This document shows positions 51,509 to 57,286 of a stretch of DNA of 57,694 nt, in pieces; the stretch's first letter is position 1, and each line of letters starts with the position of its first letter. The stretch is from contig JBBCKI010000059.1 of NCBI GenBank assembly GCA_037190965.1, positions 1 to 57,694 of the forward strand, read 5' to 3'. The DNA is from Chthoniobacteraceae bacterium (lineage in GTDB: Bacteria > Verrucomicrobiota > Verrucomicrobiia > Chthoniobacterales > Chthoniobacteraceae). Under the pieces are notes generated by a model. It did not search any database, was not told the DNA's origin, and saw nothing but the letters and a program-made list of their open reading frames with translations. The position numbers were made by a program, and so were the translations under genes.

Positions 51509-51978
51509 TTACCATCGGAGACATTCTCACCCCCAAACAAGTTGTCCTGGAACTGACTGCCACCACGCGCGAGTCCGCCATTCTCGAAGTGGCCCAACTC
51601 CTGAGGGGAGACGAGCGGGTGCGGGATTGGAACGCCTTCGTCGGCGCGATCAAAACCGGAAGTTCCTGCATGGCCAATGAAAACGGCTATGGAGTCTGCA
51701 TTCCGCACGCCCGAACCAATCAGGTCTCCACAATGGTCATGGCGGTGGGACGAACGCCCAAAGGGATCTGGTTCGGTGAAGAAGGCGACCCCGCAAGAGT
51801 GCTCGCTCATTACATCATCGTCATCGGCGTCCCGGTGGCGTTGGCTGCCGATTACCTCCGGATCATCGGAGCCATCGCGCGCACCTTTCGTTCCACCAAA
51901 AGCGAAGCCGCCTTGCGCGCCGCGCAAACGAAGCAGGAATTCATCCGGCTTCTGACGGCCAACGAGACGCCGATTTAG
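51505..51978 (+). CDS. PTS EIIA domain protein (Ntr/Fru type)
   Basis: GVCIPHART phospho-His motif; start overlaps the nadK stop (ATGA). Confidence 0.85.
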   Translation: MITIGDILTPKQVVLELTATTRESAILEVAQLLRGDERVRDWNAFVGAIKTGSSCMANENGYGVCIPHARTNQVSTMVMAVGRTPKGIWFGEEGDPARVLAHYIIVIGVPVALAADYLRIIGAIARTFRSTKSEAALRAAQTKQEFIRLLTANETPI

Positions 51979-51983
51979 TGAGT

Positions 51984-52577
51984 ATGAGCGGTAGACGCGA
52001 ACTACAACGCCGCGACCACGAGAACGAGAGGTTCTCCGGAATGACATTCCAGGACGAAGATCTGGAGGGAACCACGTGGGAATCCTGCCTTTTTGAGAAA
52101 TGCAACCTGAGCGGGTTGAAACTCAAGCAAAGCACCCTGAGTGATTGCACCTTCACGGACTGCGATCTCTCGAACCTGAGCGTTCCGAACTCGCGCTTTA
52201 ATCGCGTCTCGTTTCTCCGCTGCAAGATGCTCGGCATCAAATGGACCGATGCGGATCAATTGCTGTTTTCCATCTCCGCGAGGGAATGCAACCTGAGCTT
52301 CAGCAACTTCTTCGGGATGAAGCTGAAAAAGACGCCATTTACCGACAGCAAGGCGCAGGGGGTTATCTTCACCGACGCGGATCTGACAGAGGCGGATATG
52401 CGGAAATCTGATTTCGAAGAGGCGATCTTTCTGAACACGAACCTCTCCAAAGCGGATTTTACCGGTGCCATCAACTACGACATCGACATCCTGAGCAACA
52501 AGGTCAAACAGGCCAAATTCAACTTTCCCGAGGCCGCGAGATTACTCCGCTCCTTGGGGATTAAGATCGAAGTCTGA
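51984..52577 (+). CDS. Pentapeptide repeat protein
   Basis: Tandem xxFxx/xDLxx pentapeptides (CTFTD CDLSN, ADLTE ADMRK, TNLSK ADFTG); start could instead be the GTG at 51978. Confidence 0.9.
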   Translation: MSGRRELQRRDHENERFSGMTFQDEDLEGTTWESCLFEKCNLSGLKLKQSTLSDCTFTDCDLSNLSVPNSRFNRVSFLRCKMLGIKWTDADQLLFSISARECNLSFSNFFGMKLKKTPFTDSKAQGVIFTDADLTEADMRKSDFEEAIFLNTNLSKADFTGAINYDIDILSNKVKQAKFNFPEAARLLRSLGIKIEV

Positions 52578-52697
52578 GTCAGGCGCACAAACAGGCAAAA
52601 AAAGTGCGGAATTCCGGAAGGGACAAACCAGCAACCCAACCGGAACCCGCAATAGAACTTCCGTTCATTTAACGGAAAGTCAAACGGTTGTTCTGAA

Positions 52698-52727
52698 GGA
52701 ATTATGATGACATGCAATCAGAATTCT
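52698..52727 (+). promoter_or_regulatory. 30-bp palindromic site 1 (contains the stop codon of the 128-aa gene)
   Basis: GGAATTATGAT-GACATGCA-ATCAGAATTCT. Confidence 0.7.
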
Positions 52728-53104
52728 TCCTGTCCAGTCGCATCGAAACACCGTTGAAAATCTGCCGCATTGGAGGCAATCATCGAATCCGCCACTTTTT
52801 CGGCTGAGACCCGGTTGCTGCCTTCTGCCACCGCCTTTTCAACGTAATCACGCTTCCAGGCCTCCGAAAGAAGGCGCGTCACCGTTTCACGCAAAGTCTC
52901 ATTCTCCCGTTCCGCAATGAGCGAGATGTTGTAATAAAGCCCGGCCGGAAGCTCGACCTGCAACCGCCGCACCCGAAAGCTCCCGCGCTCCCGATGTCGC
53001 CGGGCAGCTTGGCGAAGCTGCTTTTTCCGATCGACGCCGCTGGAAGGGCGACCGCGTTTTTTAGGGGCAGGGGATACTTCGGGTTCAGGGATTTCTGATT
53101 GCAT
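52718..53104 (-). CDS. Small putative DNA-binding protein (KKRGRP motif, basic helix, ribbon-helix-helix-like; YbfE-like architecture)
   Basis: 128 aa: KKRGRPSS, RKKQLRQAARRHRER, RRLQVELPAGLYYNISLIAERENETLRETVTRLL; -10-like CATAAT 9 nt before the ATG. Confidence 0.65.
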   Translation of the reverse strand: MQSEIPEPEVSPAPKKRGRPSSGVDRKKQLRQAARRHRERGSFRVRRLQVELPAGLYYNISLIAERENETLRETVTRLLSEAWKRDYVEKAVAEGSNRVSAEKVADSMIASNAADFQRCFDATGQEEF

Positions 53105-53118
53105 GTCATCAAAATTAT
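53089..53118 (-). promoter_or_regulatory. 30-bp palindromic site 2 (inverted orientation; contains the start codon of the 128-aa gene)
   Basis: GGATTTCTGAT-TGCATGTC-ATCAAAATTAT; core is the reverse complement of the site 1 core. Confidence 0.7.
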
Positions 53119-53121
53119 GGG

Positions 53122-53151
53122 GGATTTTTGATGATATGTAATCAAAAAAGT
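53122..53151 (+). promoter_or_regulatory. 30-bp palindromic site 3 (degenerate; overlaps the predicted -35 region)
   Basis: GGATTTTTGAT-GATATGTA-ATCAAAAAAGT. Confidence 0.6.
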
Positions 53152-53303
53152 AAGGCTATCCTCCTCAAGGAAGCGATCCACGTGACGGTCACGATGAGCC
53201 CGCGGTTTAACTGGTTGCCATCGAAACTCATCATCCAGACAAGATGTGGCTTTCTGCACGTTCCGGATTTTTGGATTGGGCTTCGGTTGTTTTGACGTGT
53301 GCA

Positions 53304-53821
53304 CGATCCACAACAGTAGTCAAAGGCCGCGCGCCGAGCCAAAAGCGGGCAGCAACTTTGCAAATCAACGGTCGCTGGCGAACTCCCAGGGGGGCATCAT
53401 ATTCGGCACCAGGACCGTCACTCGCCAGGATTCACACAGTAGGCGATTTTATATGACGTATATTGTATGATGTTGTAAATAAGGCGCTCTTGCGGAGCAA
53501 TTTGCCGGGTTGTGAATAAGTTGTGGGAAAACTTTGCCCCACCCCACGATGACCCCTATTTGCCCTCGTTGGCTCGAAGTTGTTCACCGGGTCGCTCTTT
53601 CCTTCATCGCTTGGCGGCCTGATTGGCCGCCTTTTCCGCGCCAAATCGGTGCGTTGTTGCGACGTTATTGACGACGTCTTGTGCGCCGAAGTTGATGTCA
53701 CCTCCGGGTCGCCTGGGCGTCGTCCAAGGCGCTTGAATGCACCTTAAAGCCCCGCCGAGGTCACCCCAAGATCCAGCACCCCGGAGTGCGGCTTTTCGCG
53801 AAATTCACACGCCTATTCACA
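53304..53821. other. DnaA-box-like cluster with AT-rich tract; candidate replication origin
   Basis: TTATTCACA (53511-53519, minus), TTTCCCACA (53522-53530, minus), AAATTCACA 53801, CTATTCACA 53813, weaker boxes at 53304, 53428, 53580; AT-rich 53446-53482. Confidence 0.35.
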
Positions 53822-53886
53822 TCGAAATCAGGCGCGTCGCACCTCGATCTACCGAAGTTTAGAGCGGGCATCAGATTTACTCTGGC

Positions 53887-53971
53887 GGTGTTAAAATTTC
53901 ACCCCTTTTGAGTAATACACCTTTTCAGCTAAAAAGGTGTATTACTCCTTGGGGCGTGAAATAAAAACACC
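53887..53971. repeat. ~85-bp imperfect palindrome with 38-bp near-perfect core
   Basis: GAGTAATACACCTTTT-CAGCTA-AAAAGGTGTATTACTC (53910-53947) flanked by GGTGTT..ATTTCAC.CCC and GGG.GTGAAAT..AACACC. Confidence 0.8.
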
Positions 53972-54076
53972 TCTCCACGAGTCGAGCAAGATTTGGCTCT
54001 TTTGCCCCTTGCCAAATGAGGGTTATCGGGGGCTCTCTTACCCCCGATAGCGACTTCCTGAGCGCGCCCCTCGAGA

Positions 54077-54106
54077 GGAATTATGATGACATGCAATCAT
54101 AATTCC
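54077..54106 (+). promoter_or_regulatory. 30-bp palindromic site 4 (perfect arms)
   Basis: GGAATTATGAT-GACATGCA-ATCATAATTCC; first 23 nt identical to site 1. Confidence 0.75.
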
Positions 54107-54127: not shown

Positions 54128-57100
54128 TTACTCCATCAAAAGCGACTCGATTTCGCCGATGGATAGTCCTTCCATGAGCGGTTCTTCCGTCTCGATGGTG
54201 GCGTCGATCATCTCCCGTTTCTTGCGTTGCAGGTTCAGGATTTTCTCCTCCACGGTGCCGCGCGCAATGAGCTTGTACGAGGTCACCACGCTCTGCTGCC
54301 CGATTCGGTGGGCGCGGTCGGTGGCTTGCGCTTCAACGGCCGGGTTCCACCATGGATCGAAATGGATGACGGTATCCGCGGCGGTCAGATTCAATCCCGT
54401 ACCGCCGGCTTTGAGACTGATCAGGAAGACCGGGATATTTCCCGCCTGAAAGCGATCCACCTCCATGGCGCGGTCGCGTGTCTGCCCATCGAGATAACAA
54501 TAACCGATGTCGGCTTTCTCCAGTTCCTGCTTCAGGAGCGCCAACATCGAGACGAACTGACTGAAAACGAGCACCCTGTGCCCGCCGTCGATGGCTTCGG
54601 AAAGCAGTTCGTTGAAAAGCTCCACCTTGCCGGAGACCGACTCCTTGGTGGGATTGGTTCCCTCCTCCTTGTTGAGCAAACGCAAGTCGCACGACGCCTG
54701 GCGCAGTCGCAGAAGCGCCGTCAGCATCAACATCCGGGCGCGGCCCGCGTTCTTTTCACCCTGAGCCTGTTCCACCTGCGCGCGCGCCCCCTGGAGTAAC
54801 GCCGAGTAGGTTTTCCGCTGCGCCTCGTTGAGTTCGCAATAGGCTACCTGCTCCAGCTTTTGCGGCAGATCGGTGGCAACGTCCTGCTTCTTGCGGCGAA
54901 GAAGAAACGGCCGCAGACGTTTGGAAAGCCGCGTCATCGCCTCGGTGGAGTTGTGGCGCGAGATCGGGATTTCGTACCGCTCGCGGAAGTCGTCCCTGTC
55001 GCCCAGGTACCCCGGCATGACGAAATTCATGAGCGACCAGATGTCGCGCACGGAGTTCTCCACCGGTGTACCGGTGAGGATAAACTTCCGTTCAGCGCGT
55101 AAAATTCCCGCCGCCTGGGCGTTCTGCGTGTCGGGGTTTTTGATGTGCTGGGCCTCGTCGAGAACAATGGTCGAAAACTCAAACGAACGGTAGCGCTCCG
55201 CGTCGCGACGAAGCAACGGGTAGCTCGTGATGACGAGATCGGCGTTTTGGATTTCCGTAAAAAGGCGCGCGCGGTTGCCGCCTTCGATGACCAATACTTT
55301 CCTTTCTGGCGTAAATTTCTCCACCTCTCGCCGCCAGTTAAAGACCAGCGACGAGGGGCAGACTACCAGTGCGGGGCCGGGTCTCGACCGCAGAAACGCC
55401 AGCGCCTGAAGTGTTTTTCCGAGACCCATGTCGTCGGCAAGGACACCCCCCAGCCCATTGCTGGCCAGAAAGCCGAGCCACGAAGCGCCGTACTTTTGGT
55501 AACTCCGCAGGACGGGTTCAAGATCGCCGAGCGCCAGGGGTTCAATCTCTTTTTGCCCCCGTTGGGTTTGCGCCCAGGTCCGCCACTTCGGCGGAGCCGC
55601 CAGGTTGAAACCGGCCTCCGCCACCGATGCGTCGAGATAACCCGCATGCGCCTGGCCGATCCGGTAGGTGCCCGGTTGCCGTTGCTCGGGGTTGCAATCG
55701 CGCAGCACCGTCTTGAAATCATCGAGCAGCGCGGTGCTGAAAACGGCCATCTTTCCGCTCTTGAGCCGGACATGATTCTGACCGAGCTGAAGAAGCCGCT
55801 GCACCTCCGCCGCGGAAAAACGCTCGCCGCCGGAAGCCGCCAGATCGAACTGAAGCTCAAACCACTCCTCGCCGGATCCGATGATTTCCACGCGCGGCGT
55901 AATCCGCTCGATGTTCTCGGTGATCCGGCCAAATCGCGCCCCCAGTGTCACTTCCCAGTCGCGCTGCAATTGGGGGTATCCTTCCCCGAAAAAAGCGAGG
56001 ATCGTCCGCTCCCCCCGCAGGATGAAATGCCCCGTGGTGTCGGGCCCGGTGAAACCGTAGCGGGTCAGCTTCGCAAGCGCTTCACGCTCCGCTTCGATGT
56101 TGCGGCAGAGAATCCGCGAAGGGTCTTTGGGATCAGGAAACGCCCAGTTCTCCGTCGGGTTGGTCACTCCAATCGTCACGACCCGCTTGGAATAAATCCG
56201 CTGGAGTCGCGCTGTAAGATGATTGAGCGAGCCCTCCAACGTCAGCGAAAACGCCCCGGCCTCCGGCGTCAGCTTGGGGGCTTCCCCCGCAACCGCGTTG
56301 CCGGTGACCGCGAAATAGGCGCGCAACGTCGGGAGTTCGTTGGCCAGAAAAGTTCCCGCCTGTTCGGCGGGCAGCATGATGTCGCGGCGCAAAAGATCGA
56401 GATACGCGGGAGGCAACCCCGGCGCGACCGGCGCCAGCATCGCCCCTTTGAGGGACCAGGCCTGCGTGGTTCCCAAAAGCAATCGCGTCTCCCCGGGCCA
56501 TTCGACATGGAGAGAGAGCCTCCCCTGCCCGTCCATCTTTGCCTCCAGCTTCGGCAAAACGGCCGTTTTCGAAACCTCAACCGCCGTGGTTTTCCCGAAG
56601 GTCACGCGCGGATGACCGCGAAGCCCCTCCAGCAAAATGAGCGCTTTTTCGCATGGCAACGAAAGCATCCCGGCCACCGCGCCGCCATTCAGCTTCCTCA
56701 GCGTTTCGACAAGCTGAAGATCCGCGGGCGAGCAGCGAAAGGTTCCGCGTTCATTCAGGGCGTTGACGAGCACCCGGCGGCTCCCGTGCTGCGCCTCCAC
56801 CCCCACGGTGATATTGCCGCGCTCCCAGGCTGCACCGAATTGGGGAGGAAAAACCACCGACAGGGAAACCGGTTCAGCCGGAGTATCCATCCCGGTGACA
56901 AAGTGTGGCCCCCTTTTCACCTCCGACGCGGCCGCTGGGAGAGACTCATTTCGGGTGATTGACGGCGCGGGAGCCACCGTGGCGGGCCGGGGTGCCGACG
57001 CAATCTTCGGAGCCAGAAAAGCAAAACCAACCGCGAGCGAATGAGGGCAGATTGTCCCCCACTCCCGCGACTGGCGGCAGGTGCAGATGTTTTCGATGTC

Positions 57101-57286
57101 ACTCTTGGAAGAAATCTTCAACCCGGCACGAAACTCGGAGTCCCCCTCCCTCACTACCCCCTTGAGCAACGGGGGGATATAGGCGGCGCTCACCACCCGC
57201 CCGGTTTCATACAGGGCGCGGGCGTGCTTCACGGCTTGCCAGCCGCCAGCGTCCATCAACAGGCGCTCGGTCAATTCAATGGCCAT
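54128..57286 (-). CDS. SWIM zinc finger + SNF2/DEAD-box helicase
   Basis: CTC...CPH SWIM motif; LADDMGLGKTLQ, LDEAQ, LTGTPVEN, SLKAGGTGLNL, QATDRAHRIGQ. Confidence 0.95.
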   Translation of the reverse strand: MAIELTERLLMDAGGWQAVKHARALYETGRVVSAAYIPPLLKGVVREGDSEFRAGLKISSKSDIENICTCRQSREWGTICPHSLAVGFAFLAPKIASAPRPATVAPAPSITRNESLPAAASEVKRGPHFVTGMDTPAEPVSLSVVFPPQFGAAWERGNITVGVEAQHGSRRVLVNALNERGTFRCSPADLQLVETLRKLNGGAVAGMLSLPCEKALILLEGLRGHPRVTFGKTTAVEVSKTAVLPKLEAKMDGQGRLSLHVEWPGETRLLLGTTQAWSLKGAMLAPVAPGLPPAYLDLLRRDIMLPAEQAGTFLANELPTLRAYFAVTGNAVAGEAPKLTPEAGAFSLTLEGSLNHLTARLQRIYSKRVVTIGVTNPTENWAFPDPKDPSRILCRNIEAEREALAKLTRYGFTGPDTTGHFILRGERTILAFFGEGYPQLQRDWEVTLGARFGRITENIERITPRVEIIGSGEEWFELQFDLAASGGERFSAAEVQRLLQLGQNHVRLKSGKMAVFSTALLDDFKTVLRDCNPEQRQPGTYRIGQAHAGYLDASVAEAGFNLAAPPKWRTWAQTQRGQKEIEPLALGDLEPVLRSYQKYGASWLGFLASNGLGGVLADDMGLGKTLQALAFLRSRPGPALVVCPSSLVFNWRREVEKFTPERKVLVIEGGNRARLFTEIQNADLVITSYPLLRRDAERYRSFEFSTIVLDEAQHIKNPDTQNAQAAGILRAERKFILTGTPVENSVRDIWSLMNFVMPGYLGDRDDFRERYEIPISRHNSTEAMTRLSKRLRPFLLRRKKQDVATDLPQKLEQVAYCELNEAQRKTYSALLQGARAQVEQAQGEKNAGRARMLMLTALLRLRQASCDLRLLNKEEGTNPTKESVSGKVELFNELLSEAIDGGHRVLVFSQFVSMLALLKQELEKADIGYCYLDGQTRDRAMEVDRFQAGNIPVFLISLKAGGTGLNLTAADTVIHFDPWWNPAVEAQATDRAHRIGQQSVVTSYKLIARGTVEEKILNLQRKKREMIDATIETEEPLMEGLSIGEIESLLME

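Follow-up and report, generated by a model that had tools for sequence, protein, structure and literature searches.

A small ribbon-helix-helix-like gene and its palindromic sites around a predicted dif: a likely terminus-marking system in one genus of Chthoniobacteraceae

The gene and the palindromic sites

The contig JBBCKI010000059.1 of a Chthoniobacteraceae bacterium (assembly GCA_037190965.1), analysed over its 57,694 nucleotides and referred to here as the window, includes a small gene coding for a 128-amino-acid protein, P0001, with a predicted ribbon-helix-helix (RHH) fold, and four copies of a palindromic site that overlap both ends of the gene and enclose a predicted dif, the site at which chromosome dimers are resolved (Table 1). 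Gene and sites likely make up a system, restricted to the genus and not described before, by which the terminus of replication is marked in a way comparable to MatP/matS in E. coli.

An earlier note on this DNA had described the 128-amino-acid open reading frame (ORF), four copies of a 30-bp site, the location of the ATG within the core of site 2 and of the TGA within an arm of site 1, and a run of 23 identical bases shared by sites 1 and 4. All of these, positions included, were borne out; the 23 bases are counted from the start of sites 1 and 4, which agree at 28 of 30 positions overall. The four-fold repeat is real, but not every copy is identical to the 30-mer quoted in that note: a search of the genome of the window, G000 (4,214,775 bases in 73 contigs), gave 2, 5, 9 and 0 mismatches for sites 1 to 4, respectively, and at up to 9 mismatches only one other place, where the palindrome is absent. 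A weight matrix with the consensus TTTTGATTACATGTAATCAAAA, trained solely on 15 sites of other genomes, scored the four window sites at 32.8 to 35.6 bits and the next best place in the genome at 14.4 bits, while the reversed genome, used as a control, had 0 matches above 20 bits. The four copies exceed what chance would give, and they are the sole copies in the 4.2-Mb genome, which extends the earlier observation that none is found elsewhere in the window.

The site had been read as two 11-bp arms around an asymmetric 8-bp core, the geometry of a recombinase crossover site, but it is better described as a single 22-bp symmetric palindrome. When 29 sites from G000, the locus L013, three other genomes of the genus and six loci of a distant family (f6) were compared, the central CATG was present in 27 and the 8-bp core was perfectly self-complementary in 16. 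The six sites of L013 have six distinct cores. The first reading was misled because sites 1, 2 and 4 of G000 share the same 8-bp core. Its sequence thus resembles that of a palindromic operator and not that of a crossover site. Sigma-70-like hexamer pairs were found twice in the region against 0.7 expected, which taken alone is weak support for a promoter; one pair lies upstream of the ORF.

Table 1. Features of the P0001 locus, with coordinates in the window
Feature	Coordinates	Strand	Description
128-aa ORF (P0001)	52718..53104	-	KRGRP motif (residues 16-20), helix 26-40, predicted RHH ~47-83, C-terminal helix 98-124, predicted homodimer
Palindrome site 1	52698..52727 (22-bp core 52702-52723)		Carries the ORF stop codon; centre 747 bp left of dif centre
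Palindrome site 2	53089..53118 (core 53093-53114)		Inverted; ORF start codon inside central CATG
Palindrome site 3	53122..53151 (core 53126-53147)		33 bp from site 2
Palindrome site 4	54077..54106 (core 54081-54102)		Just past the stop codon of the SNF2 helicase gene; centre 632 bp to the right of dif centre
Sigma-70-like hexamer pair ATTACA-17-CATAAT	53114..53142	-	9/12, consensus match alone; upstream of ORF, overlaps sites 2 and 3
Last GGGNAGGG (presumed KOPS) on the plus strand before dif	53065..53072	+	From the KOPS counts of the window
Predicted dif ACATCATACAA-TATACG-TCATATAAAAT	53446-53473	-	22/28 to Methylacidiphilum predicted dif; KOPS flip in five relatives
DnaA-box-like tandem pair TTATTCACA, TTTCCCACA	53511..53530	-	Fixed distance from dif; first box at that offset in 27/32 dif loci
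Near-perfect hairpin, stem AATACACC/GGTGTATT	53910..53947		Recurs with variable loops in G001, G002, L013

The gene and the site travel together

Homologs were surveyed in 351 genomes of the order, a strong homolog being defined as a match at E ≤0.001 to a profile of eight sequences. Strong homologs were found in 11 genomes, the five of the window's genus (g1: G000, G001, G002, G004 and G005) and six of f6. In nine of the 11 (G000, G004, G005 and the six of f6) a site lies over the start codon of the gene or within about 60 bp of it, and the site at L013 likewise overlaps or precedes the start of the homolog. The f6 proteins are only 24 to 29% identical (four aligned) and their genes have a different context, facing away from a DUF932 gene on conjugative-element-like islands with AbiEi/AbiEii, Fic and TrbI genes. 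All six of these genes have GATTACATGTAATC directly before the ATG, the sites score 32 to 36 bits with the matrix built before their discovery, and the six f6 genomes that include the site, out of 27, are the same six that include a strong homolog. In the five that were searched whole it is the sole copy, save for one extra variant in G185.

A pattern allowing at most one mismatch matched 36 of the 351 genomes. The counts are 4, 5, 5, 3 and 3 in the five g1 genomes, one in each of the six f6 genomes, and one or two in 25 of the 340 others; six genomes matched in the reversed control. Three or more sites were found solely in the five gene-bearing g1 genomes. These counts are not blind, as the patterns were written after the sites of the genus had been seen, and the matrix is blind solely for G000, G002 and f6. 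Two genomes, G351 and G356, include a zero-mismatch site before an aldolase-like gene, and no homolog was found in either. A wider profile added 20 genomes with weak matches. A palindrome at each homolog, for which the earlier note had suggested looking, is present at nine of the 11 strong homologs but not in G001 and G002, nor at 19 weaker homolog loci (E about 1e-9 to 1e-5), which had no matrix match above 10 bits and at some of which related palindromes were noticed by eye. Taken alone, the link between protein and site is highly probable on this comparative evidence.

Further genes coding for proteins of similar architecture, with a GRP motif, a helix and an RHH, are found at L207, L208, L210, L213, L214, L216, L218 and L219, most of them divergent from a DUF932-like gene. 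Several of these have variant palindromes at the start, seen by eye, which read ATTAC-TA-GTAAT in G152 and TCAC-TA-GTGA in G232 and G166, and this suggests co-varying operators.

The sites enclose a predicted dif

The DNA enclosed by sites 1 and 4 had been described as otherwise non-coding and origin-like; the dif match and the convergence of KOPS (FtsK orienting polar sequences) place it instead at the terminus. A 116-base piece of the interval has matches at E ≤0.1 in 36 of 61 related genomes, mostly once each. Among 33 dif loci examined, 32 were kept and G003 was dropped, its dif match being cut by a contig end; a conserved 28-mer aligns in these 32 of 33, with the consensus ACATCATACAA-TATATG-TCATATAAAAT. 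This consensus of the order agrees at 23 of 28 positions with the dif predicted for Methylacidiphilum, also of the Verrucomicrobia, ACTTCGCACAATATATGTTATGTAAAAT, as given in the supplement to PMC3025954. The window element is the best place in the G000 genome for the Methylacidiphilum sequence, the next best matching at 19 of 28 positions, and the genome includes two XerC-/XerD-like genes of about 300 codons, on contigs C23 and C71, among several tyrosine recombinases.

The motif GGGNAGGG, which we take to be KOPS, occurs left of dif 14 times on the plus strand and 3 times on the minus strand of the window, and right of it 0 times on plus and once on minus. The same flip in strand was found at dif in five of five near-complete genomes sampled in 20-kb tiles, with plus/minus counts changing from 50/11 to 4/27 in G002, 14/2 to 5/15 in G042, 6/0 to 1/6 in G028, 6/4 to 0/6 in G008 and 25/11 to 7/25 in G024 (Fisher p 1e-10 to 0.03). 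The rplB gene was located in four of these genomes; in all four it points toward dif, co-oriented with the inferred fork, and dnaA lies 1.1 to 1.7 Mb from dif. GC skew in the window is +0.020 left of dif and -0.045 right of it; raw GC and third-position skew on the 20-kb tiles were noisy and insufficient to decide alone. By sequence, position and KOPS polarity the element is the predicted dif, and it is conserved across the order.

Two other assignments were discarded. An oriC had been suggested by the DnaA-box-like motifs and the AT-rich core, and was ruled out by the KOPS convergence, the orientation of rplB and the dif match; DnaA-box density at the dif interval is not among the highest in G000. 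A parS/ParB system was rejected because the sites are at the terminus, not the origin; a 16-mer that is two mismatches from what we take to be the parS motif is located elsewhere, on contig C31.

The DnaA-box-like TGTGAATAA lies about 37 bp from the edge of dif in 27 of the 32 loci, usually with a second box next to it. Nothing relevant on DnaA boxes adjoining dif was found in the literature searched, and the pair could be a Xer accessory site or a link of DnaA to the terminus. The AATACACC...GGTGTATT stem is present at four of the 32 loci, 370 to 470 bp from dif on the SNF2 side. The 3' end of the SNF2 helicase gene itself (54128-57286 in the window) is a conserved neighbour of dif in the window, L013, G001, G002, G005 and G022.

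Clustering of the sites at dif

In G000 all four sites are within 750 bp of dif, their centres at -747, -356, -323 and +632 bp. In G005 four of the five sites flank dif on either side at no more than 730 bp, whereas the fifth site and the gene are on another contig, and L013 has its six sites spread over 8.2 kb around dif. The three sites of G002 are weak and more distant, at -74, -41 and +187 kb, and there are none elsewhere in the 4.4 Mb of that genome; such clustering has a chance probability of about 6e-4, or 7e-3 when only the two sites not first seen in a tile fetched near dif are counted. G001 has one site 1.7 kb from dif and two more whose positions, inferred from synteny with G002, correspond to about +13 kb and -200 kb from the dif of that genome. 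In G004 two sites separated by about 4.5 kb, on contigs linked by the two parts of a split kinase gene, are found beside the EIIA gene that neighbours dif in the window. The genes adjoining the sites differ between genomes, hence there is no shared regulon.

Outside the genus, 19 further dif loci were inspected, and such sites were close to dif only in G022, if a single weak match of 12 bp in G024 is set aside. Of the variant GTKACATGTMAC the 6.1 Mb of G022 include two copies, both within 1.4 kb of dif. Beside dif in this genome (L223:11100-12100) are two small RHH-like ORFs, one of them flanked by three copies of ACGCGTAGACA, an arrangement that echoes the bracketing of the window gene by its own site. 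The small ORF beside the variant sites matched the family profile at E 3.5e-5 in a local search and is absent from the listing of the whole-genome search.

Properties of P0001

The earlier description of the protein as RHH-like stands as a prediction, backed by a homodimer model and by the profile matches of its family. The monomer model includes helices at residues 26-40, 54-66, 71-93 and 98-124, with residues 1-25 predicted to be unstructured; it formed no strand and reached a predicted local distance difference test (pLDDT) of 75.9 and a predicted template modelling score of 0.49. When two copies were modelled, the homodimer score was 0.80 compared to 0.00 for the best of three controls, at least 97% of the contacts agreed between runs, pLDDT was at least 73, and residues 47-52 paired across the predicted dimer in RHH fashion (contacts 48-50, 49-49 and 51-47). 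The mark used for this score is reached by 20 of 30 solved homodimers and by 1 of 23 single chains, and the pass may reflect likeness to, or memory of, solved RHH dimers.

The family is small: four close homologs were found in the 90% database, and 18 proteins including P0001 at E ≤0.001 among 1.84 billion representatives. Residues G18, R19, P20, R26, Q29 and R31 are invariant in 19 family sequences, with R38 and L79 also listed as invariant. Profile searches of the PDB placed MatP on top (residues 66-140, E 0.021 and 0.012), and MatP was also the best NCBIfam match of P0001, at E 0.0027 and far below the cut-off; the match to PF17414 (E 0.013) is below the cut-off as well. Foldseek with the P0001 model returned nothing at E 0.001 or better, the top eight rows being MatP chains (E 0.33 to 1.3), followed by Arc, with Myxococcus CdbA as a weak row, while a wide VIA-align search matched only helical hairpins (best Z 6.6) and was uninformative. 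YbfE (PRK11675) was matched by five of the 19 family members (best E 2.9e-7) and RepA2 (PRK13702) by two; P0001 itself matched neither at E up to 1. An hhalign comparison with YbfE covered residues 12-79 in 67 columns, GRP motif included (E 7.7e-4, probability 25%), the corresponding value for MatP being E 1e-3. A search for MatP homologs gave near-identical E. coli proteins among the 120 matches listed. By sequence, P0001 appears to have a weak relationship, of similar degree, with YbfE and with the C-terminal half of MatP. As YbfE aligns as well as MatP and the alignment includes the GRP motif, we place P0001 with the GRP-helix-RHH proteins, not with MatP. A tblastn search of plasmids gave no match to P0001, and viral contigs gave no homolog and a single site-pattern match with no homologous gene seen nearby. 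Matches in G041 (E 1.6e-4) and at L014 were dropped, as on reading they were not credible as homologs.

Comparison with known systems

The closest match in architecture is provided by YbfE (LexA-regulated) and RepA2/CopB (PF10723), which have in common with P0001 the GRP motif, the helix and the RHH; P0001 has an extra C-terminal helix, and the literature searched describes no dif-linked set of sites for either protein. The likeness to MatP/matS, which is found in Enterobacterales and Vibrionales, is one of outline. Both include a small RHH dimer (predicted here), a preceding helix that contacts DNA and a C-terminal helix, and both have a palindromic site enriched around dif, in our case in G000, G005, L013, G002 and part of G001, with three sites unplaced. 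In addition to the weak profile match to MatP residues 66-140, the core of the site, ATKAC-N2-GTMAT, resembles matS, which is GTGAC-N3-GTCAC; the matS motif has a single match in G000, on contig C62. In MatP, a C-terminal coiled coil forms tetramers and binds ZapB. On the other hand, the four-helix bundle at the N-terminus of MatP (PF06303) has no match in P0001, whose alignments begin at MatP residue 63 to 68 and which has instead the KRGRP motif and a single helix ahead of the RHH. The 22-bp site with A/T flanks also contrasts with the 13-bp matS, and three to six sites, often less than 1 kb from dif, with dozens over 500 to 800 kb. An autoregulatory site over its own start, hosts without MukB and a Verrucomicrobiota-type host are further differences. 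Since the N-terminal domain, the site and MukB all set it apart, the system is not counted as a member of MatP/matS, though it would work alike in outline.

With XerCD/dif and FtsK/KOPS the locus shares the element inside the repeats, which is dif by sequence, position and KOPS polarity; the palindromes on either side and the RHH gene are extra elements, which most of the dif loci do not show. Lineage-specific proteins that act at the terminus or on nucleoid organisation include Caulobacter ZapT and Bacillus XerD, an SMC unloader (PMC8242196), and Myxococcus CdbA. In contrast to these, the present system has a short, well-defined palindrome that overlaps the protein's own gene. The literature searched, mainly outside subscription papers, describes no ter-binding factor of Verrucomicrobiota, nor the P0001 family or its site.

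A possible role at the terminus

We propose, with the chances a little better than even, that P0001 is an autoregulated RHH protein, probably derived from a mobile element, that serves as a local, MatP-like organiser of the terminus at dif; both its binding and its function are what we infer. A P0001 dimer would bind the 22-bp site with its paired strands (residues ~47-52) reading the central CATG and helix 26-40 reading the GATT/AATC flanks, while KRGRP would sit in the minor groove of the A/T tracts in the way that an AT-hook does. Occupation of sites 2 and 3 would repress the gene and set the level of the protein, and occupancy on both sides of dif would hold the two sister dif regions together, or keep them free of SMC, for as long as FtsK-XerCD is at work. 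The gene would probably have originated as the regulator of a conjugative element with one autoregulatory site. An autoregulating organiser comparable to MatP/matS had been one of two options in the earlier note; the co-occurrence of gene and site, the site over the start codon and promoter-like hexamers, and the clustering at dif favour it, but the DNA being organised would be the terminus, not an origin. In Vibrio, matS density peaks at dif, the local density sets the time of cohesion of sister copies, and tetramers are dispensable (PMC11564523); by analogy, a few tightly placed sites could exert a local version of this effect. That other lineages use terminus factors of their own is illustrated by ZapT and XerD (PMC8242196).

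More tentatively, and at somewhat less than an even chance, the system may represent an autorepressor of the YbfE/RepA2 type that was domesticated from a mobile element into a dif-clamping terminus organiser in one Chthoniobacteraceae-type genus, and perhaps separately in G022, as a counterpart of MatP/matS in the Planctomycetes-Verrucomicrobia-Chlamydiae superphylum that would work without MukBEF. As part of the same conjecture, successive stages of domestication would be visible: islands with a single operator, sites clustered tightly at dif, and sites dispersed over ter. Protein/site pairs that organise the terminus are known from few lineages (MatP, ZapT, and XerD as SMC unloader). The relatives of P0001 suggest a way in which a repressor carried by a mobile element could have turned into a factor of chromosome segregation and, if this is true, may show how the helix-RHH module of MatP first became a ter-binding system. 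The candidate protein, a sharp 22-bp site and dif are all found within 1.4 kb, so that binding, looping and effects on Xer are directly testable. The dif consensus for the order and the DnaA-box-like pair at a fixed distance are by-products of the analysis.

A number of observations weigh against such a role. Three to six sites per genome are few compared to the 34 to 40 per macrodomain reported for Vibrio (PMC11564523). MukB (PF04310) was found in none of the five g1 genomes, with a positive E. coli control. The SMC hinge was found in three of them (G000, G004 and G005) and not in G001 and G002, which are 95 to 96% complete; the three are those with the autoregulatory site, in a sample too small to weigh. 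The MatP likeness of P0001 is not significant, YbfE fitting as well and with the GRP motif included. Apart from G000, just four of 70 genomes in the family have a strong homolog, and a sample of 400 genomes from the phylum gave none; absent from most relatives, the system cannot answer a general need. The five g1 genomes are kin and not independent samples. Neither G001 nor G002 has a site at the gene, and the three G002 sites, one of them first seen in the tile fetched near dif, and one G001 site overlap ATG-AAA starts, which are the commonest background match. The G001 sites on C85 and C110 were not placed near dif, one having only a partial match at -324 kb; in G004 dif was not found, and its third site, which ends an integrase gene, was not placed near dif either. 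The f6 genomes have a single site, and no dif was seen in the 13.5 to 20 kb fetched for four of them. As the gene itself is beside dif in G000 and L013, some of the sites there are explained by autoregulation alone, and the link between ORF and variant site in G022 is uncertain because the ORF has its own repeated motif.

Several of these points would also fit an autorepressor that binds the palindrome and does nothing else, the copies near dif being relics of decayed mobile elements that had integrated there. The f6 homologs on their islands, with one site each, the matches of family members to YbfE and to RepA2, which regulates plasmid replication, the two small RHH-like ORFs beside dif in G022 together with a SIR2-like gene, and the G004 site that ends an integrase gene all agree with such an origin, and elements such as the TLC phage satellite do integrate at dif (PMC11564523). 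Relics would hardly account, however, for the four near-consensus sites that flank dif in G005 while the gene is elsewhere, nor for the sites of G001 and G002, which are away from dif yet in the terminus region, at unrelated genes and none at their own gene. In addition, the stretch between the G000 sites showed no integrase, no replication gene and no further copy of dif, and the gene is intact in all five g1 genomes, each at least 85% complete, so that we regard this explanation as unlikely, though to be taken seriously. Much less probable is that the protein controls a small regulon as any transcription factor might, its sites being near the terminus by coincidence: several sites do overlap starts, namely of its own gene and of genes in G002 and G001 that, from their translated starts, we presume to be pyrG-like and kdpC-like, respectively, but no target gene is common to the genomes, and many sites are located either in the dif interval, which is free of genes, or just past a stop codon, as is the case for SNF2 in G000, G005 and L013 and for two genes of G001.

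That the dif-flanking sites are Xer accessory sites, at which the protein shapes the synapse, gates XerCD at dif or slows FtsK, has a similarly low probability. Accessory proteins act in this manner at the plasmid cer and psi sites, and in G000, G005 and L013 dif is flanked on either side by sites no more than a few hundred bp away, with one site at about 100 to 120 bp in L013, G005 and G022; yet the spacing of the nearest site varies (about 320, 120, 100 and 1700 bp, and none within tens of kb in G002), in contrast with the fixed offset of the DnaA-box-like pair. The least probable reading, and a very improbable one, is the second option of the earlier note, in which a tyrosine recombinase would cross over at the repeats, inverting the gene between sites 1 and 2 or excising 1.4 kb between sites 1 and 4. 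The shared core of sites 1, 2 and 4, the 23 bases common to sites 1 and 4 and the several tyrosine recombinases of G000 agree with it. Against it are the symmetric cores, which differ between copies to the extent that none is repeated at L013, the lone sites in f6, the constant orientation of the gene relative to its EIIA neighbour in G000, L013 and G004, and the fact that excision would take dif out. The contigs of two DNA runs, one of which may be the source of the window, showed no joint at the sites, contigs being assemblies that drop rare variants; among the sequencing runs listed as including the locus, none was of RNA.

Other features of the window and of related genomes

A conserved hairpin with a T-run (z -4.4) is located at 52590-52655 on the minus strand and is present as a single copy in nine of 61 relatives; in G001 and G002 its location is distant from that of the RHH gene. 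It has no Rfam match, the seven weak Rfam matches in the window all being far below the gathering score, and it is a candidate small RNA or terminator. A pentapeptide-repeat gene (51978-52577) lies between the EIIA and RHH genes; neither L013 nor L001 has a match to it, so that it was probably inserted recently. The end of the contig (57397-57694) is very AT-rich (26% GC) and includes long imperfect inverted repeats.

A different conserved palindrome, TATGATYGAAGTCAATCATA, precedes a regulator gene at C71:58526 in G000 and at C3:1322853 in G002; from its translated start we take the regulator to be DeoR-like, and the palindrome is probably its operator. A second helix-RHH subfamily, without the GRP motif, was found at L203-L206, L209, L211, L212, L215, L217, L220 and L221 (families f3, f5, f7, f8 and f11) and is present in five of six f5 genomes. 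In most of its members a long acidic tail terminates in sequences like QLDLF, QLELF or QLSLF, which in our view resemble the beta-clamp-binding motif, and the subfamily is possibly a replication-coupled DNA-binding protein.

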